From: Lachnospiraceae bacterium UBA1201
Lineage (GTDB): Bacteria > Bacillota > Clostridia > Lachnospirales > Lachnospiraceae
Assembly (NCBI GenBank): GCA_002309675.1
Contig: DBXX01000016.1
Location: 5,374 to 69,373, forward strand
Length of the DNA: 64,000 bases
Direction of reading: 5' to 3'
The notes beneath the pieces are model-generated. The model was not told the origin of the DNA and did no database searches. It worked only from the letters and a program-made list of their open reading frames with translations. A program made the translations under genes and the position numbers. How positions within the stretch are numbered: position 1 is the stretch's first letter; each line of letters starts with the position of its first letter. Shown in pieces: positions 1,141 to 23,770 of this stretch.

Positions 1141-1164
1141 TGCCGGCCTGTTCTATAATCTATA

Positions 1165-2292: not shown

Positions 2293-2383
2293 ATCGAATT
2301 ACCCCCTTTCCATACGATCTGCTGCGCATCCTACGCCCCCGTTCCGACAATACGATTGTACCATATCACACCCCGAAAATCAA

Positions 2384-2431
2384 GAAAAAAAGCCGACGGC
2401 CAGGGATTTTACGCCCTGTCCGTCAGCTTTT
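2384..2431 (-). terminator. Intrinsic terminator after the 846-aa lipoprotein gene (hairpin is flanked by A/T runs on both sides)
   Basis: Minus strand reads GCTGACGGACAGGGCG-TAAAATC-CCTGGCCGTCGGC followed by TTTTTTT. It starts directly after the stop codon at 2434-2436. Confidence 0.7.
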
Positions 2432-2433
2432 TC

Positions 2434-4974: not shown

Positions 4975-5109
4975 GAACCGGCTCCCTAAGCAGACCGGAT
5001 CGTGTATATGAACATATCATTTGCTTCTAACAACTCAAAGATAACCTATTCTTGTGAAGAAAGTGTGATTAATTCTTGTATTTTTCAGGTCACAGGAGCC
5101 GATTCTTAC

Positions 5110-5143
5110 GAAAAAATGCCACCGAAACCTACGGTCCGGTGGC
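5110..5143 (-). terminator. Intrinsic terminator about 230 nt downstream of pheT
   Basis: Minus strand reads GCCACCG-GACCGTAGGTTT-CGGTGGC followed by ATTTTTT. No stronger hairpin lies between it and the pheT stop at 5375. Confidence 0.5.
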
Positions 5144-5374
5144 AGGTATTTCAATTTTCGATGACGCCCTTTTTGATCAAAACGGACTTTCGGCGCCTGG
5201 TCATTGCTGATGTACGCAACATAATTCAGACCGCTGGAGTAATTGATCTTCCCCACGATGTAGGGCAGGGAAATAAACATTCGACCGTCTTCTTTAAACC
5301 ATGCTTCTTATAATATTTTACTGCTCTCTCTATTCTACCCATAGACTAAAAAAGCCGTCAGTTAGATTTGTATG

Positions 5375-7795
5375 TTATTGACGCAGGTCAATGTCCAGAT
5401 GGAACTTCAGGTTCTTCAGGATCTTCTTTACGAAACCGTCCACAGTTTCGGCCGCAAACGGCTCCTCGCCTGCGACGAACTCCACGGTGAATGCCATGCT
5501 CTTCTTACCGGGCGCGATCTGGCCGCCTTCGTATTTATCGAACAGCGTCACGCGCTTTGCGTTCTTGCAGGCAGACAGAATGCAGTTTTCGACCTGGCCG
5601 CAGGTCACGTTTTTATCCATTACGAGCGCGAGGTCACGGGTCTCACCCGGGAACTTCGGTAGCGGCTCGAAGCTTGCCTTTCCGGCGGGCAATGTATTTA
5701 GCAGCTTCAGGTCGATCTCCAGAATGTAAGCATCCGTACGAAGATCGAGCTTCTCAGCAACGGGATATGCGACCTTACCCAGGTAACCTACCTTCGTCTC
5801 GCCGCACAGGATATTCGCGGTCTGGAACGGATGGGTAAATGTCGTCTCGGCACTCTCATAGGTGAATTTCACATACAGGCTCTGCGCCACACGTTCTGCC
5901 AGTCCCTTCAGCGTGAAGAAGCTTTCCTTCTCACCGAAGATACCGATGCAGAAGGTCTCACGCTCATCGGGATACTCCGTAAGCGGCAGTTCCTTCGCGA
6001 TGAACTTCTTACCGATCTCGAACAGGCGGCCTTCGAGGTTGCCCTTCTTCTGGTTACGCGCGATCGCATTCAACATGGACGGGGCCAATGTCGTGCGCAT
6101 CAGCGAAAGTTCTTCGTTGATGGGGTTCAGGATGCGGATCGCATTGCGCTCCGGCGCATCTGCCGAAAGGCCGATCAGATCCAGATCCGAAGGCGAGAAG
6201 AACGAATAATGGATGCACTCGAATGCGCCCTGCGCGCAGAGATCCTTCTTCAGTTTCAGTTCCTTCTTCTGCCGTGCGTTCATGCCACCCGTGGTCACCA
6301 GGGCATCCGGCATGAAGGTCGGGATCACATGCTCATAACCGTACATGCGGATCACTTCTTCCGCTACATCCGGATAGGAATCCATATCTTCACGGTACGC
6401 GGGCACCTGAATAGTCAGCTCATCCCCGTTGATCGCGGGAGCGAAATTTAAGTTCGTCATGATGTGCAGCACATCCTGTGCGGGCACTTCGATGCCCAGA
6501 ACGTCATTGACCTTACGAAGGCTTACCTTCATCTCTCTCGGGTCAATGGAGTTCCCCGTATTCACATCCACGTGTGTGGAGGAAACCTTGCCGCAGCCCA
6601 GCTCTTCGATCAGGTGCAGGGCGCGCTTCATGGCATGTACGGTGGAATATTCGTCCACGCCCTTTTCATACTTCGCGCTCGCGTCGGTACGCTTACCCAG
6701 TGCACGTGCCGTCTTACGGATATTGTCGCGGGCGAACTTCGCCGACTCGAACAGGACTGCCTTCGTGGTGTCGCGGATCTCGGAATTGAGGCCGCCCATG
6801 ACGCCGGCCAGGGCCACCGCCTTCGCGCCGTCGCAGATCACCAGATTGTTCTCATTCAGTGTATATTCCTGCGCATCCAGGGTCGTGATCTTCTCGCCGT
6901 TACCTGCGCGGCGGACTACGATCGCATTGCCCTCGATATACTCGCTGTCAAATGCATGCATGGGCTGGCCCATCTCAAGCATGACATAGTTTGTGATATC
7001 TACGATATTCGAAATGGAGGTCTGACCCACCAGTGCCAGTCTGCGCTTCATCCACGCAGGGGACGGGCCGATTTTCACATCGTACACATAGTGGCCGATG
7101 TATCTCGGGCACAGGTCCGGAGCTTCCACTGAAACAGTGAAACCATCCTTTTTTACCTCGGTCTCGGTGTAGTCATAAGCCGGCTCCTTTAACGGCAGAT
7201 CCAGTACGGCAGCGACCTCGCGTGCCAGGCCCAAAATGCTCTGGCAGTCCGGACGGTTCGCGGTGATGGATACGTCGAAGATCCAGTCATCGAGGCCCAG
7301 GATGGGCTTCACATCTGCGCCGACAGCTGCGTCCGCGGGAAGCTCCAGCAGACCGTTGTAACCGGCACCCTCATACATATCTTCGGAAACGCCCAGCTCG
7401 GTTCCGGAGCAAAGCATGCCCTCGGAATCGTAGCCGCGAAGTTTGCCTTTCTTAATGGTCATCACGCCTTCTACGGTCTTGTGGTCCTTCGCGGTCGCAT
7501 ATACGCTCGCGCCGACTAAGGCTAACGGGAACTTGCCGCCGGTCCGGACATTGTCCGCGCCGCAGCACACCTGGAAGGTGCCCTTTTCGCCCGCATTGAC
7601 CTTGCAGACATGCAGGTGCGTCTCGGGGATCGGCTCGCACTCTTCTACCAGACCTACCACGATGCCGGATACGTCACGGCCTACCTCGTAGGCTTCTTCT
7701 ACCTCGAAGCCACAGGAGAACAGTTTTTTCTCCAGTTCGGCAGGCTCCACATTGATATCTACATATTCTTTTAACCAACTCAAGGGTACTAACAT
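5375..7795 (-). CDS. pheT: Phenylalanine--tRNA ligase beta subunit
   Basis: The 806-aa product starts with the canonical N-terminus MLVPLSWLKEYVDI. Length and B3/4, B5 and FDX-ACB-like regions fit PheT, and it lies immediately downstream of pheS. Confidence 0.95.
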   Translation of the reverse strand: MLVPLSWLKEYVDINVEPAELEKKLFSCGFEVEEAYEVGRDVSGIVVGLVEECEPIPETHLHVCKVNAGEKGTFQVCCGADNVRTGGKFPLALVGASVYATAKDHKTVEGVMTIKKGKLRGYDSEGMLCSGTELGVSEDMYEGAGYNGLLELPADAAVGADVKPILGLDDWIFDVSITANRPDCQSILGLAREVAAVLDLPLKEPAYDYTETEVKKDGFTVSVEAPDLCPRYIGHYVYDVKIGPSPAWMKRRLALVGQTSISNIVDITNYVMLEMGQPMHAFDSEYIEGNAIVVRRAGNGEKITTLDAQEYTLNENNLVICDGAKAVALAGVMGGLNSEIRDTTKAVLFESAKFARDNIRKTARALGKRTDASAKYEKGVDEYSTVHAMKRALHLIEELGCGKVSSTHVDVNTGNSIDPREMKVSLRKVNDVLGIEVPAQDVLHIMTNLNFAPAINGDELTIQVPAYREDMDSYPDVAEEVIRMYGYEHVIPTFMPDALVTTGGMNARQKKELKLKKDLCAQGAFECIHYSFFSPSDLDLIGLSADAPERNAIRILNPINEELSLMRTTLAPSMLNAIARNQKKGNLEGRLFEIGKKFIAKELPLTEYPDERETFCIGIFGEKESFFTLKGLAERVAQSLYVKFTYESAETTFTHPFQTANILCGETKVGYLGKVAYPVAEKLDLRTDAYILEIDLKLLNTLPAGKASFEPLPKFPGETRDLALVMDKNVTCGQVENCILSACKNAKRVTLFDKYEGGQIAPGKKSMAFTVEFVAGEEPFAAETVDGFVKKILKNLKFHLDIDLRQ

Positions 7796-7830
7796 ATTCT
7801 TTCCTCACTTTCTCACAAGATCCCGCGGCA

Positions 7831-8859
7831 TCAGTTGTTGTCGATCTGGTCCAGAACGCGCAGATCCGACTCGAACAGAAGCTTGATGTTATTGATGCCG
7901 TACTTCAGCATGGTCGCACGCTCGATACCGATACCGAACGCCAGACCGCTGTATTCATCGGGGTCAATGCCGCAATTGGAAAGCACTTTGCGGTTTACGA
8001 TGCCCGCGCCTAAGATCTCGATCCAGCCGGTTCCCTTACACAGTTTGCAGCCCTTGCCGCCGCACTCGAAGCAGCTGACATCGACCTCCACAGAAGGTTC
8101 CGTGAACGGGAAATAGGAAGGGCGCAGACGGGTCGTGGTGCCCTCGCCGTAGATCTTCTGAACGAAAACGTCCAGCATGCCCTTTAAGTCACAAAGGGTA
8201 ATCTTCTTATCTACGACCAAACCTTCCATCTGGTGGAACATCGGCGAATGCGTCGCGTCGTCATCCGAACGGAACACCTTACCGGGGCACAGGATCTTAA
8301 TGGGCGGCTTCTTCGCCTCCATGGTGTGGATCTGTGCAGCCGAGGTCTGCGTCGCCAGCAGGAACTCGGGCGACAGATAGAAGGTATCCTGCATATCTCT
8401 GGCCGGATGGTCCTTCGGTGTATTCAGCGCGGTGAAGTTATAATAATCGTTCTCGATCTCTTTGTTTTCCATGACTTCGAAGCCCATGCCTGCGAAAACG
8501 TCGATGATCTCGTTTCGCATCTGGGTGATCGGGTGCAGATTTCCGTTCTTAACGGTGATCGCAGGCTCGGTCACGTCGATCTTTTCCTGCTCATAGCGCA
8601 TCTGGAGTTCCTTTGCCTTGATCTTCTCATCCAACTCGGCAAAACGCTGCAACGCCCATTCCTTCAGGTCATTGACCCCTTTACCGAAACCGGCTCTCTC
8701 CTCCGGCGCGATATTCTTCATCTCCTTCATCAAAAGGCCGATCTTACCCGACTTCGAATCCAGGAAATGTTTCTTCAGCTCATAAACGGCCTTCGAACTC
8801 TGCAGGTCCTCGATGCCGTTTAAGATCTCGTTCTTGATACTCTCAAACTTTTCATTCAT
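7831..8859 (-). CDS. pheS: Phenylalanine--tRNA ligase alpha subunit
   Basis: The 342-aa product carries class II aaRS motifs ([39 protein letters not shown]...[18 protein letters not shown]). Confidence 0.95.
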
Positions 8860-8919
8860 GGTTTCTTCCTCCTATACTCTTCGGTATGGACGATGTCACT
8901 CTATTCCTCACCCGTGCTC

Positions 8920-9150
8920 CGGATAAAAAAATAGAGCCACCATCCCACATTGGGACGATTGCTCGCGGTACCACCCAAATTAGAAGGAAAACAATTCCTT
9001 CTCACTCGAACCCTTTAATGCAGGGGATACATCCGCCACATCGGGCATATTTCCCGTAGCAGCGAAGACTCCGATGCCGAAAATTCGATCCCATCCTCCT
9101 GCGACTTCCCACCTGCCGTCGCTCTCTGTGCGGTCTCAAATGCGATCTAC
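8920..9150 (-). promoter_or_regulatory. T-box leader (tRNA-sensing riboswitch) of pheST
   Basis: The minus strand carries the T-box motif AATTTGGGTGGTACCGCG (8964-8981). A terminator, GAGCAATCGTCCCA-ATG-TGGGATGGTGGCTC plus TATTTTTTT (about 8924-8963), overlaps it and competes with the antiterminator. An AGAGAG box lies near 9130-9140. A UUC triplet at 9008-9010 is a candidate Phe specifier, but I could not fold stem I confidently. The 5' boundary is approximate. Confidence 0.85.
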
Positions 9151-9168
9151 TGCTGCATCATCAACGTC

Positions 9169-9206
9169 AAAAAAACTATCCAGAGGAACTTCATGCCCCT
9201 CTGGAT
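9169..9206 (-). terminator. Intrinsic terminator ending the AT-rich ABC operon
   Basis: Minus strand reads ATCCAGAGG-GGCATGAAGTT-CCTCTGGAT followed by AGTTTTTTT. Confidence 0.75.
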
Positions 9207-9332
9207 ATTCATTATATCAGTTCCTGTTGATATGTCAAGAGGGGAAGTCCTCTTATGTGACACACCTCAATAAGTGCAATCTATGCAACCATATAACTAT
9301 TAAACGCAACATGATCCGAAAGCTCCTCTCAG

Positions 9333-9995
9333 TCAGATAAGGAAAAGCCCATCTTCCATCCTCAATAGCCTTTTAGCATGCTTTGCCACGGTCAGATCAT
9401 GTGTAACGACCATGATCGTTTTTCCATGTTTATTTATTATATCAAACACATCCATGATTTCCTTGCTGGTATTGCTATCCAAAGCTCCGGTAGGTTCATC
9501 TGCAAGAATTAGTTCATGATCAGAAACTAAGGCTCGTGCTATGGCTGTCCTTTGTTGTTGGCCTCCAGAAATATGGATAGGAAGTTTATCCCTTAGTTCG
9601 GCTATTCCCAATTCTTCTAAAGTATTCGTCACTTTTTTCTTTCTTTCCGTCGAATGAATGCCCTGAGCGATAAGCGGTAACTCAACATTCTCAAAAACCG
9701 TGTAGCGATTTAACAGAGCAAAATTCTGAAAGACAAAACTAATATGTTTTTTTCGAAAGATATGCAACTGTTTATAAGATAATTCATGAACAGCTACATC
9801 ATCAAATACATACGTTCCAGAAGTGGAGCTATCCATGCATCCGAGAATATTAAGAAGAGTAGATTTCCCACAGCCTGAGGGGCCCATAACTGCAATATAA
9901 TCACCATTACTTATCGATAACGATACTCCTCGCAGAGCATGTGTCTCTGTTCCTCCCGAAGTATATGTTTTACAAATATTATCCAATAGTATCAT
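9333..9995 (-). CDS. ABC transporter ATP-binding protein (MacB/LolD-like)
   Basis: From MILLDNICKTYTSGG: Walker A GPSGCGKST, signature ISGGQQQR, Walker B LILADEPTGALD. I use the ATG at 9993-9995, which abuts the stop of the upstream permease, rather than the longer ORF-track start at 10103. Confidence 0.9.
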   Translation of the reverse strand: MILLDNICKTYTSGGTETHALRGVSLSISNGDYIAVMGPSGCGKSTLLNILGCMDSSTSGTYVFDDVAVHELSYKQLHIFRKKHISFVFQNFALLNRYTVFENVELPLIAQGIHSTERKKKVTNTLEELGIAELRDKLPIHISGGQQQRTAIARALVSDHELILADEPTGALDSNTSKEIMDVFDIINKHGKTIMVVTHDLTVAKHAKRLLRMEDGLFLI

Positions 9996-9997
9996 AG

Positions 9998-11269
9998 TCA
10001 ATCCTTTACTTGAAGCAAGTCTATTATGTGCTGTCGACTGATATATGCGCAAGGAACAGCAACTGTAACAATATACGATATTAATGATAGTAACAAAAAC
10101 CATCTTAACGTTATAGTACTATGCATTAATTGATAAGTCATCGAACACTCTCTGGCATACCACATTCCAATACCATACGCTAAAACCGCAGACAAAACTA
10201 TCTTTATAAACTGTTCTGCAAAAATCATGGTCTGTACATCAGAGGGAAGTATGCCACTAGCATACCAAATACCTATCTTCTTTCGTTGTACCATCAGAGA
10301 TATTACAGCAGATGCAGTGGATGTCAGTATACATAATACGAACATAAATATCAGTAGCTTCATGTACATTTTTTCTGCTGCCATTTTGTCTGACGCCGAA
10401 TCAGCGAGTATACTATCTACGCTCACCATAGAAAGAATGATATTATACTCATTGCCAATATTCCTGACCTGCCGTTCAACTTGAATGGAATCTGCAGATT
10501 TATCTAGTTTCATATATAAAGCATTTAGTGGAGGAGTTGTACGTACGGATCGCATATCTGATGATCGAAATACAAACTGATAGTTCAGACTGTTCGTCTT
10601 ATAAAAATACGTTCCAAGTCCATTGTTGTTGGGCCATGTAGCGTCAGGATCTAAGAACCCGACGATCCTACATGATTTATCGCCGTAATGTAAAATATCC
10701 CCGATATTCAATATATCTGAAAATGAACTCCCCGCTAAAACCGGCCAATATCCATCAGAAGCAGATAAAAAGTCAGCCAAATAATCATCGCTACATTTCA
10801 GCATAAGATAATTCATGCAATCATCATCAACGATCAATGCAAGAGAATCATTGGACATGATACCTAATTCAAGTTCATCAACTCTTCGAGTACTCATGAT
10901 GTATTCATACTCTTCCGACCGAGATAACTCATCAAACCGAACTCGACTGTAATCATACCCGCAAACAAAATTAACTCCGTCTATAGATCGTATATCCTCC
11001 AAAAAATCCATATATGATGTCTGTTCATATAGAATCCTTGGGGGGGATGTCATATTCATGTACTGGAAATCAATCTTATAAACATCATCAATACCACTTT
11101 TGTATCCATCTATGTAGGTGTCATACTCAAAAGACTGTTCTTTCATGAGTGTCAATACCATATCAAACAAAAGGAAGGTACATATAGTCAGAAGGACGCT
11201 CAAAACCAATAGTTTTATCCTGCCCGTCATGAAATCTGTCATCAATAAAAATCTATCTCTGTTTTTCAT
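9998..11269 (-). CDS. FtsX-like ABC permease (single FtsX domain: N-terminal TM, large extracytoplasmic domain, three C-terminal TMs)
   Basis: The topology was read from the translation. The C-terminal part (KLLIFMFVLCILTSTASAVISLMVQRKKIGIWYASGILPSDVQTMIFAEQFIKIVLSAVLAYGIG) is FtsX-like. The ATGA start/stop overlap with the upstream permease is at 11266-11269. Confidence 0.75.
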   Translation of the reverse strand: MKNRDRFLLMTDFMTGRIKLLVLSVLLTICTFLLFDMVLTLMKEQSFEYDTYIDGYKSGIDDVYKIDFQYMNMTSPPRILYEQTSYMDFLEDIRSIDGVNFVCGYDYSRVRFDELSRSEEYEYIMSTRRVDELELGIMSNDSLALIVDDDCMNYLMLKCSDDYLADFLSASDGYWPVLAGSSFSDILNIGDILHYGDKSCRIVGFLDPDATWPNNNGLGTYFYKTNSLNYQFVFRSSDMRSVRTTPPLNALYMKLDKSADSIQVERQVRNIGNEYNIILSMVSVDSILADSASDKMAAEKMYMKLLIFMFVLCILTSTASAVISLMVQRKKIGIWYASGILPSDVQTMIFAEQFIKIVLSAVLAYGIGMWYARECSMTYQLMHSTITLRWFLLLSLISYIVTVAVPCAYISRQHIIDLLQVKD

Positions 11270-12363
11270 ATTCCATCACTTCTATCCTGTAAAGACTTAA
11301 TGGCTTCTTTTTGATCTAGTCGTCTTATGTGTCTCCACAAACTGAGCAAACAAGTTATAAACGTAAATATCAATATTATAATTACATTTTTATATGTGAA
11401 ACTCAATTTTATTCCAAGCATTCTTTCGCCCGCAAGTAGAAAAAAGCCTTGTATAAACGCACAAAAAATCGATGCCGTCAAAGCAAGTAGAAAAAGCTGA
11501 ATAAACAAATCTATCTTTAGTTGTGTAGAGGAATATCCCAGTGTCTTCTTTACCGATAATTCATAGCGCCGTTCGTAAATCCAAATATCAGAAGCTACAA
11601 CGCAATGCAAAACAGCAAAAGCATACAATAAAATGTAAAAATACGCCTCAGAACGAGGGCGTCCAATACTATCATCCGTATGACTTTGTATACCGGTCAA
11701 ATGAATAAATCCTTTACTATCCTCCAAAATCGAATACATCTCTTTATAACACGTATAGGTATCATTCGTATTGCTTTCAAGCAATAGATTAACCGTATCA
11801 TATAATCTCAGATGATCCATGGTTCTATCTGATAAATTCGTATACCAAAGAATAATATACCAGTCCAAGTATTCAGAACGGTTTGAGCCTATTATTCCAC
11901 TCACCCTGTAATCTGATCCATCTATAGATAGATAATCTCCTGCACTTTTTTTAAACATGTCTGCAACACTTTTTCCGATAACACATACTGGTTCTGCTTC
12001 CTTATTGATCTCAGGATAGTTTCCACTGATCAAAGGATAAATGTATTCAGTCGACCTAAACACCACATGAGCCTCTGTATTATACTCTACCTTTTCTTCG
12101 GACAAAGTGATATGGACGCCGGTCAGAGCTATATTGCAGTTAATATCAGCACGAATATTTGACAAATCAAAATCCTCTGTTTTTGTCAATTCCGCAATAT
12201 ACCTGCTCTTAAACTGCATCTGGTCCCGATCATCTTCATATTCCCCTATTTCGTTAAAAATAGAAAGTGAAATAAAAAGAGCGACAAATGCGATTATGCA
12301 AGAAAAGAACATATACAAATCAACAGCCGGATACCGAAAGATCTTTCTTAGTAGATTTCTCAT
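11266..12363 (-). CDS. FtsX-like ABC permease (second, distinct subunit)
   Basis: It has an N-terminal TM, an extracytoplasmic domain, and the C-terminal segment ERRYELSVKKTLGYSSTQLKIDLFIQLFLLALTASIFCAFIQGFFLLAG, which is typical of the FtsX fold. Confidence 0.7.
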   Translation of the reverse strand: MRNLLRKIFRYPAVDLYMFFSCIIAFVALFISLSIFNEIGEYEDDRDQMQFKSRYIAELTKTEDFDLSNIRADINCNIALTGVHITLSEEKVEYNTEAHVVFRSTEYIYPLISGNYPEINKEAEPVCVIGKSVADMFKKSAGDYLSIDGSDYRVSGIIGSNRSEYLDWYIILWYTNLSDRTMDHLRLYDTVNLLLESNTNDTYTCYKEMYSILEDSKGFIHLTGIQSHTDDSIGRPRSEAYFYILLYAFAVLHCVVASDIWIYERRYELSVKKTLGYSSTQLKIDLFIQLFLLALTASIFCAFIQGFFLLAGERMLGIKLSFTYKNVIIILIFTFITCLLSLWRHIRRLDQKEAIKSLQDRSDGI

Positions 12364-12427
12364 TTATCTTTCAAGATTTGAACACCTGTGAATGTTCTTT
12401 TTTCCTTTCAATCAAACTTATTAAAAT

Positions 12428-12457
12428 GCGCGACAGATAAATATGTATCTGCCGCGC
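12428..12457 (-). promoter_or_regulatory. Intercistronic GC-rich hairpin (weak or partial terminator) between the small secreted-protein genes and the transporter genes
   Basis: Minus strand reads GCGCGGCAGATA-CATATT-TATCTGTCGCGC followed by ATTTTAAT. It is a 12-bp stem in an otherwise very AT-rich spacer. Confidence 0.5.
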
Positions 12458-12483
12458 TGATACAGAAACAATTACACATATTT

Positions 12484-12936
12484 CTATTTGATCTTACGCC
12501 CTATATTGAACAAATACTTAAAATTTGAAACATACTGGCTGGATCTACAAGTAAAAAAGCCGCTACTTCCTTCTGAATATTTGAAAAACACTTCAAACTT
12601 ATCACCACTACAGTGAAACGAAATTGTATCCTCATATTCACCGGATTCTTGAAGTCTTTTACTGTATACTTCTTTTTTTTCATTATCATACACAGCAATG
12701 ATCAATTCACCCTTATGTAATGTCCCTGTATATTCGATTTTCACATCACAGGGGGAATATGATAAATACGCGCCCACTTCCTTCTTGCACCAACCATCCA
12801 CGAAATAATTCGTTCCTTCATTATCCATATTGATCTCAATTTCGGATTCTCCGTTTAAATGCGACTGAAACCCGAGAACGGTCAGTCCTGCTATAATCAG
12901 AAGCAAAAAAATAATTACAAATTTTTTCTTTATCAT
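12484..12936 (-). CDS. Small secreted or membrane-anchored protein, unknown family (150 aa, 4 Cys)
   Basis: The N-terminus MIKKKFVIIFLLLIIAGLTVLGFQS looks like a signal peptide or anchor. The SD GAGAGGGA lies upstream. The body looks beta-rich, and I recognise no family motif. Confidence 0.6.
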   Translation of the reverse strand: MIKKKFVIIFLLLIIAGLTVLGFQSHLNGESEIEINMDNEGTNYFVDGWCKKEVGAYLSYSPCDVKIEYTGTLHKGELIIAVYDNEKKEVYSKRLQESGEYEDTISFHCSGDKFEVFFKYSEGSSGFFTCRSSQYVSNFKYLFNIGRKIK

Positions 12937-12952
12937 AATCCCTCTCGTTTAA

Positions 12953-13420
12953 TCAACTCTCTTTATCTGATACCCAATCTGTTAAGGATTCATATATACC
13001 ATCATCCGAAACAAGTTTTCCCCGAACTTCAACACTTTTCACACTTTGAAACAGTGAGCCAAATGAATCAGTCCAACATGCCTCAGCCACATGCCACATA
13101 GTCGCGGAACCAACTCCACCCTTGTGCGTGTACCGAACATATCCGAACGCCGGACGAGCTGCATATTCAAAGTTAGAGCTTTCCGACGTTCCCTGTCCTG
13201 TAGCTACGCTATGCAGGAACTTTCCAGTTTTTACAGCTCGAAAAGCTGCAAATCCGGCATCTTCCCTGTACTCATGATACGTGTCTGTACATGTGTAACC
13301 TAGCATTCTAAAATTACTTTTGGAATCACTTAATCCATATGCATAAGCAACCACAATATTAGCTACACAAACAATCATTATCAACATAATAGTAACTAAT
13401 ATCTTCTTTTGTCGTTTCAT
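12953..13420 (-). CDS. Small secreted protein, unknown family (155 aa; predicted cleavage near AYA/YG)
   Basis: The signal peptide is MKRQKKILVTIMLIMIVCVANIVVAYAYG. The SD GGAGGG lies 7 nt upstream. The mature part is aromatic-rich with 2 Cys and an acidic C-terminus, and I recognise no family motif. Confidence 0.6.
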   Translation of the reverse strand: MKRQKKILVTIMLIMIVCVANIVVAYAYGLSDSKSNFRMLGYTCTDTYHEYREDAGFAAFRAVKTGKFLHSVATGQGTSESSNFEYAARPAFGYVRYTHKGGVGSATMWHVAEACWTDSFGSLFQSVKSVEVRGKLVSDDGIYESLTDWVSDKES

Positions 13421-13494
13421 TAAAATCCCTCCATGGTATTATTCTTCACCGGGGACATAGATGGCGCGTAATATCATACTCTCCGGCTGTAATA

Positions 13495-13523
13495 ATATTA
13501 ATAATAATTGCACAAATTGTCAA
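13495..13523 (-). promoter_or_regulatory. Sigma-A type promoter of the AT-rich island operon
   Basis: Minus strand has TTGACA (13518-13523), a 17-nt spacer, then TAATAT (13495-13500). It sits about 75 nt upstream of the 155-aa gene. Confidence 0.6.
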
Positions 13524-13588
13524 GTGAAATTCAGTAAACGGATCGGATTAATTGTCATTTATTAATGAATTATGTGTGAGCGCTTCAC

Positions 13589-14944
13589 TTACGAACGCAA
13601 TAGATCGATCGGCTGTTTGCGAAGGTAACTATGCAGAATGACATACTGCATGAAAAACATAAGCAAGAGCAGAATGCCCAATGCACCGGCTGCGACCCTG
13701 ACAAAATCCAAAACATTCAATTCCAATCGGAACATGATCAACGAACCGACATACTCATTTAGAATGAAGATCAATACGGCTGAACATACAACGCCGAACA
13801 AAACGGCAACAAGGGCGATATACAGCAGTTCATAAAACCCGATCTGCAGGATGCCTCCTCTTTGAATACCCATAGCACGTAGAATTCCGTTGTAGTGCTT
13901 GCGGTCCATTGCCCGCTGTGTGAAGATATTGTAGAGATGGATCAGTAGAGAAAATATGATCATTCCACCGAACAACGCTCCGACCTTGTTGACCAGGATG
14001 TCCACCGAAGTGATCTCATTGCAAGGCACGATTACCTCGCGATATACATCATTGTCATAATACATCCTGCTCCCTGCACTCCCGATCTGCTCTGAAAAAC
14101 GATTCGCAACCTTGGCATAATTCTTGTAGTTATCCACAGTGTAACTATGACGCATTCTCAAGGCAGACGTCTCTCGACGCAGTTCTTCATTTCCACGTAG
14201 CCAAATCTGCGGCATATACATCGTTCCATATTCACGGAAGTACTCTCCATCTATGATCCCAACGATCGTCACATGATCCATGACGGTCCCTTCTTTGTGG
14301 ATGAAGGAAACCGTTTTTCCCACATAATCCTCTGCGTCCTGAAGGATTCCATACTTTCGCAGCATGAAATCCGAAATCATGATCTCGTTCGAATTCTGCG
14401 GCTCACGGCCGAACAGTAGAGGGCTGTCCTTCCTGTTTTGATACTGATACTCTTCCAAACAAGCCCCGCAAAATAAGGTATCCGAAAGCAAGAAGCCGAC
14501 CTGAAATTCGATACTCCGCCCGTTATTTCTGCTCTGAAATGTCATACTGGGAGGGTAGAAACTGTTATCATCGACCCCCTGATGGATCTGGTCTTCACAC
14601 ACCATCGTCATAAATCGGTTCGAAGTCCGAACATACGTATCGCTTTGTAATACTTTGTCGAGATCCATCACCGCATACCGAATCGGTTCCGATAATTCCT
14701 CCCACGCATCCATCTCTGACAGAAGTTCAGATTCATCCTCCCCCTGTTCCGTATATACGGTAAATGTACTGGCCGAACGATAACCTTTCGTATATTTCTC
14801 ATTCGCATTCCCGATAGCAGCTCGCATAGAAAGCCAGGCTACCAGAAGCATCGATATAACGATGAGATTGATCAGGATCCGCAGCGTATTACGTTTATGG
14901 CAGCACAGATTATATCCGGCATTTGCGAAATAAAACTTCTTCAT
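13589..14944 (-). CDS. FtsX-like ABC permease
   Basis: The 451-aa product has an N-terminal TM, a large extracytoplasmic domain, and the C-terminal segment DRKHYNGILRAMGIQRGGILQIGFYELLYIALVAVLFGVV plus two further TMs. Confidence 0.7.
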   Translation of the reverse strand: MKKFYFANAGYNLCCHKRNTLRILINLIVISMLLVAWLSMRAAIGNANEKYTKGYRSASTFTVYTEQGEDESELLSEMDAWEELSEPIRYAVMDLDKVLQSDTYVRTSNRFMTMVCEDQIHQGVDDNSFYPPSMTFQSRNNGRSIEFQVGFLLSDTLFCGACLEEYQYQNRKDSPLLFGREPQNSNEIMISDFMLRKYGILQDAEDYVGKTVSFIHKEGTVMDHVTIVGIIDGEYFREYGTMYMPQIWLRGNEELRRETSALRMRHSYTVDNYKNYAKVANRFSEQIGSAGSRMYYDNDVYREVIVPCNEITSVDILVNKVGALFGGMIIFSLLIHLYNIFTQRAMDRKHYNGILRAMGIQRGGILQIGFYELLYIALVAVLFGVVCSAVLIFILNEYVGSLIMFRLELNVLDFVRVAAGALGILLLLMFFMQYVILHSYLRKQPIDLLRS

Positions 14945-14955
14945 ACCCTGCCCTC

Positions 14956-16164
14956 CTACTGCGATTCACTGCGCATTAGTTCAGTGATCTCTGCGGTTTT
15001 AAATGTTCGTTTTCCCAAAAAGCAGGCTGCCCAGGCCAGCACTGAAACCGCAATAAAACCAAACAGCGCAGTCCCGTTCCACACATTTGTCGATATATCC
15101 ATTTCAAAATGCAGATCGGAGAGGCAGACGGAAACGTAAGCCAGTAAATGCGGCGAAATAAACTGAGAAATCAAAAACGCGATTGCTAATACCCCCTGTG
15201 TTACCATGCACACCACAGTCATAATTCCTCGGGTCCGAAAGCCCAATGCCTTAAGCAAGGAAAAAAAGCGGGTTCGACGTGCAAAATAAGCACGTGCAGT
15301 CGCGAACAGAATACCCACTACCATCAGTCCTATAAAACCACACAATACATATAACAGGAACAATACCGTCATGTATCCGTCGATGACGGATTTGTTGTAT
15401 GAATTAGCAAAATAGTAATGCGATTTGATCTCATTGATGATCTTATTGAGTTGCAGGATCGAGTCCGGCTGAAGGAGGACCCGGTTTTCTTTCATCATCT
15501 TGGGAACGACCGATTCATAAACCGGAATCGTAACATAAAAGAATGCCATCTTACTATCGTCACGTCTGTATACTCCCGCAACCCTCGTCGATATCTTTGA
15601 ATTCATCCTGCCCGGAAGCTCCATCACATCGCCCGCGTAGCATCCTATCATTTCTGCCGCTTTATCACTCAACCAGATTTTGTAAGTAGAATTATCCTCC
15701 TCCGTCCACGGATCACCTGCCAACAAAACTTCATTCATCCTCGTGATAGAAGCATGTGTTTTATCTTGTACAACATCCCCGGTACTTCCACTCATGCCAA
15801 AGGATCGTGTAAACACCTCTCCACTTTCGCTATCCTGATATTCCTCCACGTAATACTGATTCTCTGAATCCGACGAATCTATTCCGATCAGATCACTCCG
15901 TATAGTCGGGAATTCAATGACCTTCAGCGGCATCTCTTCCAATGTCGGGAGAAAGCCAGCTGGAAGCTTATTCATTTCGATCACGTTGATATAGGAATCT
16001 GCAAATTCATCATCAAGCACATTCGGAATACGCCTTGTGACTAAAAGAATCGATATTAAAGATGCGAAAAAAAACGAGGCACTCAATAAGAAGACAACAT
16101 AAAAATGCCACTGTGTGCGAAGCTCGTCTCCCGCGATCTGTAAGCATCCCCTAAAGCGTTTCAT
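14956..16164 (-). CDS. FtsX-like ABC permease
   Basis: The start is taken at MKRFRGCLQIAG (ATG 16162-16164), overlapping the last 14 nt of the ATPase gene. The C-terminal FtsX-like segment is RRTRFFSLLKALGFRTRGIMTVVCMVTQGVLAIAFLISQF. Confidence 0.7.
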   Translation of the reverse strand: MKRFRGCLQIAGDELRTQWHFYVVFLLSASFFFASLISILLVTRRIPNVLDDEFADSYINVIEMNKLPAGFLPTLEEMPLKVIEFPTIRSDLIGIDSSDSENQYYVEEYQDSESGEVFTRSFGMSGSTGDVVQDKTHASITRMNEVLLAGDPWTEEDNSTYKIWLSDKAAEMIGCYAGDVMELPGRMNSKISTRVAGVYRRDDSKMAFFYVTIPVYESVVPKMMKENRVLLQPDSILQLNKIINEIKSHYYFANSYNKSVIDGYMTVLFLLYVLCGFIGLMVVGILFATARAYFARRTRFFSLLKALGFRTRGIMTVVCMVTQGVLAIAFLISQFISPHLLAYVSVCLSDLHFEMDISTNVWNGTALFGFIAVSVLAWAACFLGKRTFKTAEITELMRSESQ

Positions 16165-16831
16165 CGGCAACGATTCCTCCATCCAACATACGGATCCTGC
16201 GTTTTGCGCGTTTTGCGTCCTCCTCATTATGCGTAACAAGCAGAATGCTTTTACCTTCTCCATTCAATCGCTCGAACAAATTCATGATCTCCTTTGAATT
16301 CTCCGAATCCAGGTTTCCGCATGGTTCATCGGCCAGAATGAACTCTGGTTCGCCAACTAGCGCGCGGGCAATGCAGACTCTTTGCTTTTCCCCACCGGAC
16401 AGAGTGTCCGCCCGCTGTTTTGCCTTGTGAGCAAGTCCGACGGTCTCCAACGCTTTCATGACACGTTCTTTTCGTTCTTTCTTACCCACACCACCGATCA
16501 GCAGGGGCATCTCAACATTTTTATAGGCACTATAAGCTGGTTCCAAATAAAACGCCTGAAACACGTAACCGATCTTCCGATTTCGCAGATCAGCCCTTTT
16601 GTTTTCCGAAAGATCCTTCGTATTCAGTCCTCCGATCAAGACCTCCCCGGAGGTGGGCATATCGATCAGGCCGATCATATTCAAAAGCGTGGATTTCCCG
16701 CTGCCGGACTTTCCGACCACGGCCACATACTCTCCCGCCTCCATAGAAAATGACACATGAGCCAGCGCTTGCTGACTCTGTGTCTTTGAAACATATTCCT
16801 TCGTGAGATCACGACACTCTATAATCTTCAT
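16151..16831 (-). CDS. ABC transporter ATP-binding protein (MacB/LolD-like)
   Basis: From MKIIECRDLTKEY with SD GGAGGGG: Walker A GKSGSGKST, signature LSGGEKQR, Walker B ILADEPCGNLD. Confidence 0.9.
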   Translation of the reverse strand: MKIIECRDLTKEYVSKTQSQQALAHVSFSMEAGEYVAVVGKSGSGKSTLLNMIGLIDMPTSGEVLIGGLNTKDLSENKRADLRNRKIGYVFQAFYLEPAYSAYKNVEMPLLIGGVGKKERKERVMKALETVGLAHKAKQRADTLSGGEKQRVCIARALVGEPEFILADEPCGNLDSENSKEIMNLFERLNGEGKSILLVTHNEEDAKRAKRRIRMLDGGIVADETL

Positions 16832-16866
16832 GCTTCCCCTCCACACAAGTTTCTAAAAGCTCTTCA

Positions 16867-17391
16867 TTAATCGGACACAGGCGCATATCTCATATAAAAA
16901 ACTTCTTCGCCCGTCTCATAGTCCTCAGAAAAGATTCCAAATTTCCCCTCGCTCGGACAATATGTCAAAAAGGACTCTATTTCAAATCCATTTGCGAATG
17001 TCATCCGAATTTCTACCTCATAATATAACCTTGGGTCATCCTGGAACGCGTTTTCGTATACCTGATCATGAGGGATGAGGTAATGCTTATATCCTTCATA
17101 ATCAAAGTTCTCCTTCAAATCGGCTACAAACTCGTCTGCATCGATCTTCTCATCAATTTTCCGGCCATAAACTGCGGCCTGGAACGCACCAAAAATTTCG
17201 ATATACTCATCCCAAGCATATTTCTCAAGAATGATTCCCTTTCCGTTGACGACGATCCGTTCTTCCACGCCGTTTTCCGTCGTGCCCACATAGGTTCCGC
17301 TCGGAATCAACTGTTTCTTTCCACAGGCCGAAAGAGAAAGCATCAGCATTATCCCTAACATCCATAAAAAGAACCATTTTCGAAGTTTCAT
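16867..17391 (-). CDS. Lipoprotein, unknown function
   Basis: The lipobox is MLSLSACGKKQ. The ATG directly abuts the TAG stop of the upstream gene (TAGATG at 17389-17394). Confidence 0.65.
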   Translation of the reverse strand: MKLRKWFFLWMLGIMLMLSLSACGKKQLIPSGTYVGTTENGVEERIVVNGKGIILEKYAWDEYIEIFGAFQAAVYGRKIDEKIDADEFVADLKENFDYEGYKHYLIPHDQVYENAFQDDPRLYYEVEIRMTFANGFEIESFLTYCPSEGKFGIFSEDYETGEEVFYMRYAPVSD

Positions 17392-18816
17392 CTAGTTCTC
17401 CTTATATTCAAAATAGTAAAACTCATCATCCTGTCCCGCTTTCACGAATCCATTGTCCGTGATCATCTTATAGGAAGCCGAGTTCACCTGATAACAACGC
17501 GCCTTACAGTGCAAGCCCAGTTTTTCACTCGCGTATCGCGCCATAGCGCCGAATGCCACTGTCCCGTAACCACGTCCGTGGTACTCAGGTTGTATCCGAC
17601 AGCCGATCTCCACATCGCCGCAGGAAGTAAACTGCCATAGGATTCCCTCTCCGATCATATCGCCGTCGGGCGTTTCGCGGATCGCGAAATTGATTGAATC
17701 ACCGCAGGCATTGTCATGCAGGATCGAGTGATAGAACAAACCTTCACAGACCGGACCGGTCAATGATACATCCTCGCGGTAATCGTAGCCCCAGTAGCGG
17801 TTGTTTTCCACGTCGGTGTTGAGCGCAAAACATGCGAGGATATCCTCCGGGCGGATCCGGGTCAGGACGACCGGACCGGCCTGCAGGACCAGATCCTGCG
17901 GCACGCACGCTGCCGGTGTATTCACATGGACCAGGTATTTGTGGACCATGTCGATCGGGTGATACTGCTGCTTCGACGTACGAAGCCCGGGATCGCCCGA
18001 ATCATCTTCACGGTTGATCGTTGTACATTTTCCGGGGAAAAGCTCGTCTACGAGCCTTACAAGGCCATTGTACATGGTCGGGTAAGCTCCTTCGTATTCT
18101 AGGAGCGCCTTTTCCACGTGGATCACGAGCATATCGCCGACGATCTCGGCGATACTGAACGCTGCGATCGCGTCGCCAACCTCCAGGCAGGCCGTGATCA
18201 TCTGAAAGCATTCGCTTAAAGCGAGCAGATTTTTCGCAGATTCCAGTTCCATCCGTTCCAGCAGGTTCGCATCCGCGTGCTCCGCCTCATAGCGTGTGAG
18301 CATAACGTCGAGTTTCGGCTGATCCTCCGGCTTAAGCAGACGGATCTTCGGCTCGCCGTATAGTTTCCGAAATTTATTGATATGGTTGCGCTGCCCGCTG
18401 TATTTCTTTCCGGCAAATGTCTTCGTCTCCTCAAAGGAATAGAGATAGTCGCTCCAGCGACGGTCATAGGAGCCCATGGCGTTGTCAAATCGCGAATCTT
18501 CGCGAAGTTCCAAAAGCCTCTGCTCCGATACAGGATAGAAACGAAGCGGCAGGTTCTCCTCCTGCACATATTGCAGAAGCTCATCGATCATACCGTCCGG
18601 ATCCTTACCGACCGGATAGGTAAAAGCCGGCTGGTCTCCTACATTCTGCCGGATCGTAAATGTATCATTCCATAAGCAAAACTGCATGTCCGTGCCTGCA
18701 TTCCAGAGGATCAGACTCCCGACCGAGAGATCACTCGCCGGAAAGTTCTTTCCGCACTTCAGAAAGCAGCGGTACGCATGCAGTTTCTCTATAGAATACG
18801 GCTCAAATAAAAGCAT
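17392..18816 (-). CDS. Soluble DUF2156 (MprF C-terminal, aminoacyl-transferase-like) domain fused to a C-terminal RimJ/RimL-like GNAT acetyltransferase
   Basis: The N-terminal 300 aa (FAGKKYSGQRNHINKFRKLYG..., LVIHVEKALLEYEGAYPTMYNGLV) resemble DUF2156 as I remember it. The C-terminal approximately 150 aa (NNRYWGYDYRED...IQPEYHGRGYGTVAFGAMARYA) are GNAT-like. No TM is present. Confidence 0.5.
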   Translation of the reverse strand: MLLFEPYSIEKLHAYRCFLKCGKNFPASDLSVGSLILWNAGTDMQFCLWNDTFTIRQNVGDQPAFTYPVGKDPDGMIDELLQYVQEENLPLRFYPVSEQRLLELREDSRFDNAMGSYDRRWSDYLYSFEETKTFAGKKYSGQRNHINKFRKLYGEPKIRLLKPEDQPKLDVMLTRYEAEHADANLLERMELESAKNLLALSECFQMITACLEVGDAIAAFSIAEIVGDMLVIHVEKALLEYEGAYPTMYNGLVRLVDELFPGKCTTINREDDSGDPGLRTSKQQYHPIDMVHKYLVHVNTPAACVPQDLVLQAGPVVLTRIRPEDILACFALNTDVENNRYWGYDYREDVSLTGPVCEGLFYHSILHDNACGDSINFAIRETPDGDMIGEGILWQFTSCGDVEIGCRIQPEYHGRGYGTVAFGAMARYASEKLGLHCKARCYQVNSASYKMITDNGFVKAGQDDEFYYFEYKEN

Positions 18817-19910: not shown

Positions 19911-20138
19911 TCAATCCCGGGGGTGCCTTTGCAGGCACTCCCGGGATCCGGATTTTTTCTCTGCGAGTAACATATTATAAGCTTCGATCTTGCGGATCTT
20001 ACGTGCCTGCCATACCGAAAACAGGAAGACCAGCACCGAAAGTATGATGGACGGCATGAAGCTGATGGCCGTCTGCAGGATCAGACTGTCAGAAGTATAT
20101 CCGATGGCCTTGTAGATGCCGTAATCCTTTCTCTTCAA
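19911..20138 (-). pseudogene. Remnant of an FtsX-family permease C-terminus
   Basis: The 75-aa ORF RKDYGIYKAIGYTSDSLILQTAISFMPSIILSVLV...WQARKIRKIEAYNMLLAE matches the conserved loop-TM and C-terminal KIxKIEpyxxL tail of FtsX/BceB-type permeases. It lacks the N-terminal TM, the external domain and a partner ATPase. A GC-rich hairpin (about 19914-19946) overlaps its 3' end. Confidence 0.5.
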
Positions 20139-20143
20139 ATGCT

Positions 20144-21205
20144 TTATTCATAGTAGGCGTAATATACGACCTTTCCATCCTCCACATAGACGAGGATCAT
20201 GTTTTCCACGATTCCCTTTTCGATATCGGCTTGCGTCCGACCCGGGTGATCCTTCGGATAGGACATACCGATACCGATTCGCAGATAACGAAGCCCATTG
20301 TCCGTGCTCTGTCTGAGGTGGATATACGTCTCATACCCCTCAGGCGGCATATAAGGCTTAAAGGATTTTGTCTCCTGATCATACCTGCCGATCGCCAGAT
20401 GCTGTTTCAGCGAATTAGCATCGATATCCTCGTAGGACAGGCGGACATAGAAGAACTCCATCACGCAGAATTCCCGGGTCTTATCTCCTTCCGGTTCTCC
20501 ATAGGCTATACCCGTAACCTCCGGATCAATGCCCAGATAATGTCCATCCAGCAGGATCGGGGCATTATCTGCCATATTATCGATCTTAATATCCGCGATC
20601 GGAGTATTCACCGTAAACTTCATCGTTTCGATGTAGGCGGAATTCTCACTGTCATAACGATAGCGGACCGGAACTTCAAAAGTCAGTCCCTCACCAGGCA
20701 CCTTCTGTTCCTCTTTTGAAATAAAAACCAAAGCAACCTTATAGAATACCTGATCATCCCCGGGACGCTCGATCCACTGGAAAACCTTCGATGGATGGGT
20801 ATAATTCGTCCCGCTGTCCTTATCATAATACTTGGATTTTCCGGTGTGATCGGAGATGTAGTAACCGGGCTTATCAAATTGCAGATAATAGGTCGAATAA
20901 TAGCGATCTCCGACCTTCGCATGATCGATCATCGCGAAGTAATAATCCGGTGTATCCATCTTCGGAAACTCCGTCGCCGGTTCGGTGGGCGGTTCAGTGG
21001 TCGTTTCGGCGATGGTCGTCGATACCTCCGTTGTAGGTTCCGCTGTCGTAGGCTCCACCGTCGTTTCCGGGACAGTCCATGCATCCACACTCTCTTCGGA
21101 CGTAGCCTGAGTTTCGTTGTTGTTCCCTTTACCGCAGCCTGTCAGGGCTCCGATCGCCAAAAGCAGGCACACTACTGCTAATAGCTTTCTGATACGTTTT
21201 GTCAT
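20144..21205 (-). CDS. Lipoprotein with Thr/Glu/Pro-rich linker, unknown function
   Basis: The lipobox is LAIGALTGCGKG, followed by the linker TTVEPTTAEPTTEVSTTIAETTTEPPTEPATE and then a globular domain. Confidence 0.6.
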   Translation of the reverse strand: MTKRIRKLLAVVCLLLAIGALTGCGKGNNNETQATSEESVDAWTVPETTVEPTTAEPTTEVSTTIAETTTEPPTEPATEFPKMDTPDYYFAMIDHAKVGDRYYSTYYLQFDKPGYYISDHTGKSKYYDKDSGTNYTHPSKVFQWIERPGDDQVFYKVALVFISKEEQKVPGEGLTFEVPVRYRYDSENSAYIETMKFTVNTPIADIKIDNMADNAPILLDGHYLGIDPEVTGIAYGEPEGDKTREFCVMEFFYVRLSYEDIDANSLKQHLAIGRYDQETKSFKPYMPPEGYETYIHLRQSTDNGLRYLRIGIGMSYPKDHPGRTQADIEKGIVENMILVYVEDGKVVYYAYYE

Positions 21206-21289
21206 ATTCCTTCCTTATCCCTTTCTCAATCGGCATTTACGCCGTTGTAGTTTCTCATCCCCTATCTTACCATAAATGCCACCTATTTT

Positions 21290-22081: not shown

Positions 22082-22082
22082 C

Positions 22083-22982: not shown

Positions 22983-23065
22983 ACTTCTTCTCCTATTTGG
23001 TCTTTCTTCGACCTGTTCGCCCGCGGTCACCCCCGATTCCGCTTAGCATCCTAAGCCACGCACGC

Positions 23066-23527: not shown

Positions 23528-23708
23528 AGTTTTCCTTTCCCAACTCTCTGCCGTTATCATCGGTAAAATGGCCACACGATCGTAAATTCCGCCGTGAACA
23601 GCCGACACCCATCCGCCCGAAATACATTATTCAACCCACTAAAAATGTAGCATTTTCGGTACTATATGTCAACCGGATAATCGGTTTCTAAAGGCTTCAT
23701 CTGCCCTG

Positions 23709-23747
23709 AAAAAAAGCGAAAGGCTGCCGGAGCACGGCAGCCTTTCT
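23709..23747 (-). terminator. Intrinsic terminator after the MarR-like gene
   Basis: Minus strand reads AAAGGCTGCCG-TGCTC-CGGCAGCCTTT followed by CGCTTTTTT. Confidence 0.8.
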
Positions 23748-23770
23748 TGTATCGCAAAACAAGCGAAATA

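Follow-up and report, generated by a model that had tools for sequence, protein, structure and literature searches.

What does a compact, AT-rich cassette of five genes do that lies beside pheST in Lachnospiraceae bacterium UBA1201, and how did it get there? We have analyzed a stretch of 64,000 nucleotides of this genome (GenBank assembly GCA_002309675.1, contig DBXX01000016.1, positions 5,374 to 69,373), hereafter the window, in whose numbering all coordinates are given. The five genes are all on the minus strand and encode two small proteins that are exported or anchored (A and B), two FtsX-type permeases (X1 and X2) and an ATPase of the ATP-binding cassette (ABC) type. A preliminary description of the window had singled out this block as horizontally acquired and had likened its gene order to that of lactococcin-972 clusters. 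We find a recently inserted cassette in which two previously undescribed protein families travel with a heterodimeric ABC machine, and we tentatively read A as a secreted bacteriocin against which B and the ABC complex would protect the producer.

A recent insertion in one rumen lineage

The composition of the block sets it apart from its surroundings. At 9207-13525 the G+C content is 36.8% against 52.0% for the window outside 9207-17391, which is the lowest value among all 4.3-kb windows of the stretch (mean 50.4%, standard deviation 4.0%), and the tetranucleotide distance of 0.52 is the largest (mean 0.19, standard deviation 0.08). The same difference is seen at third codon positions, where G+C amounts to 0.31-0.36 in the five cassette genes and to 0.70-0.74 in pheS and pheT. 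The preliminary description had made its proposal depend on a composition unlike that of the background, and windowed G+C and tetranucleotide deviation, now computed, bear it out, although its hand count of 20-35% G+C was too low, as 500-nt windows within the block give 33-42%.

The extent of the insert follows from the closest species-representative genome. This is the GTDB representative 'Lachnospiraceae bacterium RGIG7058' (L015), which comes from sheep rumen and whose pheS product shares 98% identity with that of the window, and the next-closest PheS relatives belong to metagenome-assembled genomes named Acetatifactor or Lachnospiraceae from herbivore guts. Positions 146-654 of L015 match 14094-13586 of the window and positions 759-4734 match 9264-5280. 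The site in L015 is empty, with just 104 nt from the stop codon of the upstream FtsX gene (homologue of 13589-14944) to the pheS promoter. Because the flank alignments stop at these points with 104 nt between them, we place the insert at about 9265-13585, which shifts the limits of 9207-13525 given before, and the cassette stands in place of about 104 nt of intergenic DNA of this sister genome. Direct or inverted repeats were looked for at the insert junctions and none was found, and none of the five cassette open reading frames (ORFs) encodes an integrase or transposase. The cassette probably spreads via flank recombination or carrier elements.

At this very site the cassette is also present in three further metagenomic strains of the lineage (L100, L101, L103), and L102 is 100% identical to window positions 2953-18018. 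Between the window and L100, nucleotide identity in the flanks is 89.2% for pheS and 86.3% for pheT, whereas the cassette genes share 99.6% (A), 97.6% (B), 98.2% (X1), 98.3% (X2) and 94.0% (ATPase). The split of the hosts must thus predate the cassette by far. Together with the composition and the empty site in the closest species-representative genome, this contrast in identity shows that the cassette was acquired horizontally, as had been proposed, and recently, and documents a very recent spread inside one rumen lineage. Atypical composition and presence/absence polymorphism at a conserved site, the two marks of a genomic islet, are both found here.

Several assemblies break at or beside the cassette or its insertion site. 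The L015 contig starts within the FtsX gene upstream of the site, those of L097 and L098 stop 60-80 nt past A, and L099 is broken there as well. These breaks fit strain-level presence/absence or coverage changes. The features of the locus are collected in Table 1.

Table 1. Features of the cassette and its boundary in the window, with the basis of each call.
Feature	Position	Strand	Basis
Inserted cassette, ~4.32 kb	~9265..13585	.	alignment to L015 empty site; low G+C
Cassette sigma-70-type promoter, TTGACA-17-TAATAT	13495..13523	-	10/12 consensus matches; ~100 nt upstream of A start
Gene A, 155 aa, Sec-type signal	12953..13420	-	ORF
Gene B, 150 aa, N-terminal membrane anchor	12484..12936	-	ORF
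Stem-loop between B and X1, 12-bp G+C-rich stem, then AUUUUAAUAA	12428..12457	-	folding
X1, 365 aa, FtsX/MacB-type permease	11266..12363	-	Pfam FtsX, MacB_PCD
X2, 423 aa, very divergent FtsX-type permease	9998..11269	-	sub-threshold Pfam; topology
ABC ATPase, 220 aa, MacB/LolD/FtsE type	9333..9995	-	ABC_tran; start from homologues
Host hairpin, 13-bp, then seven T	9177..9207	-	folding; outside insert

Two new families of small exported proteins

The Sec-type signal of protein A consists of a MKRQKK start, a hydrophobic core at residues 7-25, which is the single hydrophobic segment of the protein, and AYA followed by YG. Mature A of about 128 aa is modeled by AlphaFold2 as a short helix (residues 30-39) and a seven-strand beta-sandwich, the signal forming a helix. 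This model was obtained with 18 sequences (predicted local distance difference test, pLDDT, 88.5; predicted template-modeling score, pTM, 0.76), and with just five sequences the pLDDT is 42.5. Protein B has one N-terminal hydrophobic segment without A-x-A or a clear cleavage site, followed by a Gly/Ser-rich linker and an acidic extracellular domain of about 115 aa that contains four Cys. The isoelectric point (pI) of this ectodomain lies between 4.2 and 5.7 in all eight members of the B family.

Neither protein could be assigned to a known family. Searches of Pfam, NCBIfam, PADLOC and PHROGs returned no match for A or B, nor did Pfam scans of all 18 A-family members and of every B-family member, and PDB sequence-profile searches gave matches at chance level at best for both. 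Foldseek with the A model found nothing in PDB at E<=0.001. The matches listed from PDB and BFVD are generic Ig-like, ApaG and GH2-type/glycosidase-accessory sandwiches with a TM-score of at most 0.39 (at most 0.36 in PDB), which we dismissed as functional leads, and one uncharacterised phage protein from BFVD (6.8e-4). A and B are previously undescribed families. The two novel small proteins of the preliminary description, one with a Sec signal and the other with an anchor, are thus confirmed by the family and structure searches that it had called for, in which neither protein found a family and A found no PDB fold at E<=0.001.

The A family is rare. A word-indexed search of 5.8 billion proteins yielded five A clusters, and an exhaustive HMMER search of 1.84 billion representatives gave 16 matches at E<=0.001, of which one is spurious (P0030, a 428-aa repeat protein at E = 4.7e-4), leaving about 15. 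A scan of GTDB genomes with A patterns and a search of viral contigs found no relative, and one partial locus was recovered from JGI metagenome contigs. All members measure 126-172 aa and each has a signal peptide. G93 is invariant, Y48, A59 and W116 are near-invariant, and few other positions are conserved. A Cys/His enzyme is ruled out, as Cys44 and His110 vary in the family; the scarcity of invariant residues and the variable Cys and His favour a binding role for A over an enzymatic one. Two members deviate in their signal. The L001 homologue has a lipobox-like AAGC closing the signal peptide, and in L005 (1600-1700) the MKRQKK start is lost and a downstream ATG gives a signal peptide without charged N-region. 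Secretion of this L005 copy may be impaired.

A direct search with B retrieved two clusters, and weak but recognisable homologues occur among the neighbours of A in seven other cassettes. A and B are not paralogues of each other according to hhalign. Charge complementarity between them amounts to a weak, non-significant trend (r = -0.59, p = 0.13, n = 8, uncorrected for phylogeny).

A type VII ABC machine with two dissimilar permeases

X1 is recognised by Pfam FtsX (38.8 bits, cut-off 25.5) and MacB_PCD (28.3 bits, cut-off 27), and its topology consists of a first transmembrane segment (TM1), an extracellular domain of about 205 aa and TM2-4. Weak PDB profile matches include HrtB (7w78, E = 4.5e-4), MacB and LolC, and the similarity to the LolC and LolE structures is marginal (E = 0.002-0.07). 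The 299-aa X1 called in L100 and L101 is no pseudogene, since its DNA is identical to that of L103 and the difference lies in the start-codon call. X2, which overlaps the X1 stop by 4 nt, has the same layout (TM1, an extracellular domain of about 255 aa, TM2-4), scores below the cut-off with both models (FtsX 18.3 bits, MacB_PCD 16.2 bits) and had no match in a PDB search; its invariant GIWYA motif occupies the position of the post-TM2 loop. BLAST detects no similarity between X1 and X2. A pair so dissimilar points to an old heterodimer, as in LolC/LolE.

The ATPase matches Pfam ABC_tran with 113.6 bits and has intact Walker A, Q-loop, signature, Walker B and H-loop motifs. The 256-aa ORF is over-extended, and translation starts at an internal ATG as in all homologues. 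The best NCBIfam models are DarD, TIGR03608, MacB, FtsE and LolD (E = 1e-58 to 2e-69), all under their cut-offs. Based on the topology and domains of the permeases and on the type of ATPase, the machine belongs to the type VII (MacB/FtsX) ABC superfamily: both permeases have the topology of this superfamily together with an FtsX domain (sub-threshold in X2), and the ATPase falls in the MacB/LolD/FtsE group. Known members of this superfamily act on substrates at the outer membrane face instead of moving them across the membrane, and these substrates are already outside the cytoplasm, such as the Sec-exported enterotoxin STII (PMC5985334).

Strict linkage and patchy distribution

Linkage was assessed in eight distinct cassettes (the window, L001, L002/3, L006/7, L009, L010, L011/12 and L013/14); three further A genes were left out of the count as their contigs end too early. 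All eight have DNA downstream of A, and X1 comes next in every one of them. X2 and the ATPase follow wherever the contig is long enough, which is the case in seven of the eight, L009 ending after X1. B is less constant, being present in seven of the eight, absent in L011/12 and placed after the ATPase in L006. An X2 profile retrieved six clusters from the 5.8 billion proteins and one locus from the JGI metagenomes, and nothing from viral contigs. X2 is as rarely found as A, hence the permease pair is as rare as the A family, and the X2-profile search revealed no transporter-only locus with X1-X2-ATPase and without A. The question whether the small proteins travel with the FtsX pair, which the preliminary description had raised, is thereby answered in the affirmative for A.

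The cassettes sit in different surroundings, next to genes for homoserine dehydrogenase, 2-hydroxyacid dehydrogenase, an HlyIII-family protein (L010), zinc-ribbon proteins or TraG/VirD4, and in most loci their G+C content is under that of the flanks (38% vs 55-57% in L013, for example). The most divergent cassette, L011 (A-X1-X2-ATPase without B; L011 1-16519), follows directly after a TraG/VirD4-type coupling protein and is probably located on a conjugative element. A double radical-SAM/SPASM enzyme is encoded near this cassette, and RNase III, HIRAN and WYL genes lie downstream.

A machine of this type with a dedicated exported partner could also serve no protective purpose at all. As FtsEX does with its hydrolase partners or LolCDE with lipoproteins, the complex might work by mechanotransduction or extraction and activate, release or extract A and/or B on the outside of the membrane for cell-wall remodelling, adhesion or signalling. 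Two FtsX-type permeases with one ATPase are indeed the arrangement of LolC/LolE/LolD, and type VII systems work on substrates outside the cytoplasm, as STII illustrates (PMC5985334); moreover, the few weak PDB matches of X1 include LolC and LolE, and the L001 homologue of A has the lipobox-like AAGC. We nevertheless regard such a role as improbable. A and B lack a hydrolase, coiled-coil or other recognisable effector domain, the Cys and His of A are unconserved, the similarity to LolC/E is no better than the marginal values given above, and the patchy, strain-level, horizontal distribution of the cassette is easier to reconcile with an accessory trait used in competition than with housekeeping of the envelope.

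Transcription of the cassette

The promoter noted in the preliminary description is upheld, and its position is kept in cassettes elsewhere: the motif recurs at the same distance from A in L100, L005, L002, L010 and L011. Its spacer and -10 region are AT-rich, with ATTATTA repeats (TTGACAATTTGTGCAATTATTATTAATATTATTACAG) at 13480-13523 that are common to cassettes of different genomes. Counterparts of this repeat region lie at about 9880-9960 in L100, where it contains a 12-nt duplication (ATTATTACAGCC), and at about 1560-1610 in L005. The repeats may form an operator for a regulator encoded elsewhere.

The stem-loop between B and X1 has a folding energy of -20.9 kcal/mol (z = -5.3), and none of 200 shuffled sequences was as stable. 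A comparable hairpin separates the small gene or genes from X1 in five of nine cassettes. The stem-loop of the window probably acts as a partial terminator or stabilises the mRNA.

At the other end, the hairpin that had been taken as the terminator bounding the block is real (-20.8 kcal/mol, z = -5.2) but belongs to the host, being kept in L015, which is without the cassette. It lies between the pheS promoter (a perfect TTGACA-16-TATAAT with extended TG at 9238-9211), which it follows directly, and the T-box leader of pheST (9173-8948; Rfam 102.8 bits, E = 2.4e-22). Oddly for a terminator-like element, it begins about 4 nt past the pheS -10 box. It may end the upstream operon or stabilise the 5' end of the pheS leader; as the sole terminator-like element downstream of the cassette, it probably ends the cassette transcripts. 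An Rfam match to a eukaryotic C/D-box snoRNA at 10868-10942 (minus strand; 32.5 bits vs a gathering threshold of 50) lies inside the X2 coding region and is best taken as a chance match.

A putative bacteriocin with two-layer immunity

The gene layout leads us to a toxin/immunity reading. By analogy with clusters of similar organization, we propose, short of firm conviction, that A is a new secreted protein bacteriocin and that anchored B and X1-X2-ATPase constitute the immunity. The strict linkage of A to the permease pair, the accessory and mobile nature of the cassette, the conserved promoter and hairpin and the binding-protein character of A speak for this reading as well. With slightly more reserve still, A may be the founder of a new bacteriocin class, Sec-exported beta-sandwich proteins of about 14 kDa from gut and rumen Clostridia that are unrelated to lactococcin 972. 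Self-protection would then have two layers in a new combination, with B as an anchored acidic decoy and a heterodimeric, LolCE-like ABC machine of type VII stripping the toxin from the envelope.

The block is a self-contained operon that spreads horizontally, in which a single promoter drives the two exported proteins and then the heterodimeric machine. In our model A would leave via Sec, have its signal cut and be released as a beta-sandwich protein of about 14 kDa that would hit the cell envelope of competitors. B and X1-X2-ATPase would shield the producing cell on the outside of its membrane. B might bind or mask A, whereas the ABC complex might dislodge A from the membrane or its target by ATP-driven motion of the large extracellular domains (mechanotransmission), which would parallel thinking on BceAB-type transporters and proposals for the lactococcin-972 orf2/orf3 products. 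The stem-loop after B would keep the A and B transcripts in excess of those of the transporter.

Several points weigh against a bacteriocin. Pfam, hhalign against Lcn972 and Foldseek all fail to relate A to a known bacteriocin, and mature A is not uniformly cationic, its pI running from 4.6 to 9.2 across the family. A hairpin behind the first gene is likewise typical of operons in which that gene encodes an overproduced binding protein. Neither a quorum-sensing gene nor any other regulator is found in the cassette. At 53-66% identity, against 46-54% for X1 and X2, A does not diverge faster than the permeases. The neighbouring resident module, described below, shows a small extracytoplasmic partner of FtsX permeases without any sign of a toxin. 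Finally, no immunity-only locus turned up in the X2 search, whereas such loci are common for lactococcin-972-like systems (bioRxiv 10.1101/2024.10.01.616058; PMC4055356).

If A is a toxin, the cassette would bring a new protein-bacteriocin family and a new immunity design into the little-studied competition among rumen and gut Lachnospiraceae, and it would provide a five-gene model for a heterodimeric MacB/FtsX-type ABC system acting on a protein outside a single-membrane cell. If A is not a toxin, A and B are still two new families, outside Pfam and without structural neighbour, and the strict coupling to a dedicated permease pair makes both partner and function directly testable.

The neighbouring region and a possible resistance role

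The gene upstream of the cassette is not radA, as had been stated, but belongs to a second FtsX/FtsX/ATPase module (13589-17391, minus strand) that consists of a resident lipoprotein (174 aa), an ATPase and two different FtsX permeases. RadA/Sms is encoded at 24917-26350, and a ClpC-type ATPase at 26841-29303. Next to the resident module, 17392-18816 encodes a 474-aa fusion of LPG_synthase_C (MprF C-terminal-like) with GNAT. The two modules are not copies of each other: BLAST finds no similarity between X1/X2 and the resident FtsX pair, which excludes paralogy, the ATPases alone being related (44%), and comparison likewise excludes a kinship of A or B with the resident lipoprotein.

The resident module is hypervariable. 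Compared to L100 (6053-9807), a strain of the same lineage, amino-acid identity is 49% for the lipoprotein, 54 and 66% for the permeases and 86% for the ATPase, and the genes beside the module reach 92% (LPG_synthase_C) and 98% (PheS). This suggests diversifying selection or allelic replacement of its surface-exposed parts. The ORF of the first resident permease (435 aa, 14956-16263) overlaps the ATPase gene (16151-16846) by about 110 nt, and the gene call in L102 (402 aa, start at ~16164) leaves a short overlap. Further away, between a 292-aa gene and radA, about 19959-24358 holds MarR, GNAT, ABC ATPase and ABC-2 permease genes and a 353-aa gene of no known kind. The corresponding interval in L100 (1-3471) and L103 encodes a HisKA kinase, an ABC ATPase and a 783-aa BceB-like FtsX permease, of which the window retains a trace, the last 104 aa at 55% identity (19959-20135). 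Overall, the pheS-radA interval is a variable region rich in exporters.

This setting brings up a resistance or detoxification module as the main rival explanation, in which X1-X2-ATPase would remove an external envelope-active compound. This could be an antimicrobial peptide, a lipid II binder or a factor of the host, and A and B, as accessory subunits outside the cell and not as a toxin, would capture, sequester or sense it. The region is rich in genes of such kind, with the resident FtsX module, the LPG_synthase_C and GNAT fusion and the ABC-2 exporter, and sister strains have the HisKA kinase and the BceAB-like permease in addition. The resident module likewise opens with a small protein outside the cytoplasm, A is obligately linked to X1 and X2 and is not unusually divergent, and the acidity seen throughout the B family would suit a trap for cationic peptides. 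In Firmicutes, ABC systems of the FtsX/MacB type are best known for peptide-antibiotic resistance (PMC5985334; PMC7038271). We consider this role rather unlikely, although worth weighing. No two-component or other sensor-regulator is attached to the cassette, unlike in typical Bce-type modules, and B is dispensable in the L011/L012 lineage. A is unrelated to the resident lipoprotein; its signal is cleavable and it has no anchor, so that most of it should leave a cell lacking an outer membrane. Lachnospiraceae, a family of the Bacillota, are not known to have such a membrane.

Comparison with known systems

The lcn972-orf2-orf3 cluster of pBL1 served as comparison set for lactococcin 972. The likeness put forward in the preliminary description holds for the gene layout: the first product is Sec-exported, non-lantibiotic and beta-rich, an FtsX-like membrane protein and a MacB-type ATPase follow in one operon, and the DNA is mobile with its own promoter. 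The combination typical of lactococcin-972 clusters, a Sec signal and the order bacteriocin, membrane protein, ATPase, is found in the cassette with A in first place, and the signal of A is kept across its family. This layout, which streptococcin scbABC shares, has been described as a 'structural bacteriocin followed by two immunity genes' (PMC4055356; bioRxiv 10.1101/2024.10.01.616058).

A family relationship, in contrast, fails for A, X1, X2 and the ATPase alike. PF09683/TIGR01653 has no match in A and the 18 family members, even at E<=10, with Lcn972 itself matching PF09683 at 8.7e-15 as positive control, and hhalign gives the A profile a probability of 2.7% against Lcn972. DUF1430/TIGR01654 is not found in X1 and X2, whose hhalign probabilities against pBL1 orf2 are about 1 and 0.4%, respectively; as positive control, orf2 matches DUF1430 at 5.9e-22 and has a weak FtsX match as well. 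The cassette ATPase scores 219.9 bits with the lactococcin-972-group model TIGR03608, under the cut-off of 254.85, and is 31% identical to pBL1 orf3 and 44% to the neighbouring resident ATPase. Lcn972 (PDB 2LGN) is not among the top 50 Foldseek matches of A. Genuine though far diverged membership of the cassette in the lactococcin-972 family could be imagined from the shared gene order, the second place of TIGR03608 behind DarD among the NCBIfam models of the ATPase, the weak match of the DUF1430 region of orf2 to FtsX and the fact that Lcn972 is likewise a Sec-exported beta-sandwich. With every family test, Foldseek included, turning out negative, we hold this to be highly improbable. The architecture differs too: A is twice the size of lactococcin 972 and unrelated in sequence, the cassette has an extra anchored protein B, and two 4-TM permeases with MacB-like extracellular domains take the place of one DUF1430 protein of about 650 aa.

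The machine itself resembles LolCDE in having two different 4-TM FtsX-type permeases with large extracytoplasmic domains and a separate ATPase (PMC5985334), for which LolD-type models score high. X1 and X2, however, have no NCBIfam LolC/LolE match and the similarity of X1 to LolC and LolE in PDB is marginal, the host family is not known to have an outer membrane, a LolA- or LolB-like partner is missing, and the cassette is accessory and mobile rather than essential. A likeness to FtsEX, which works with PcsB, CwlO, EnvC or RipC, lies in the coupling of an FtsX-type ABC complex to a dedicated extracytoplasmic protein. In FtsEX, however, FtsX is a homodimer, the partners have coiled-coil and hydrolase or activator domains that neither A nor B possesses, and the genes belong to the core set whereas the cassette is accessory.

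BceAB, YknXYZ and AS-48EFGH belong to the same ABC superfamily and act at the outer membrane face against envelope-targeting peptides. AS-48EFGH provides bacteriocin self-immunity, and MacB-type ABC systems also operate in target protection by BceAB (PMC5985334; PMC7038271). X1 and X2 are not a fused 10-TM BceB, and the cassette has no BceRS-like two-component system and no membrane-fusion-protein partner; unlike these systems it brings its own exported proteins.

Two layers of protection, a membrane-tethered extracellular binding protein and an ABC transporter, are realized in the immunity to lantibiotics by LanI and LanFEG. The two layers proposed here are comparable, with B in the position of LanI, although B shows no sequence relation to LanI and is anchored by a TM helix and not by a lipid, and LanFEG is of the ABC-2 type instead of the FtsX type. 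Firmicutes carry many cassettes that combine a small protein with an ABC system, and the present one, a Sec-exported protein with an FtsX-type ABC partner, is a known kind of arrangement. Its A and B families are new, which makes the cassette a compact candidate for a new bacteriocin and immunity design.

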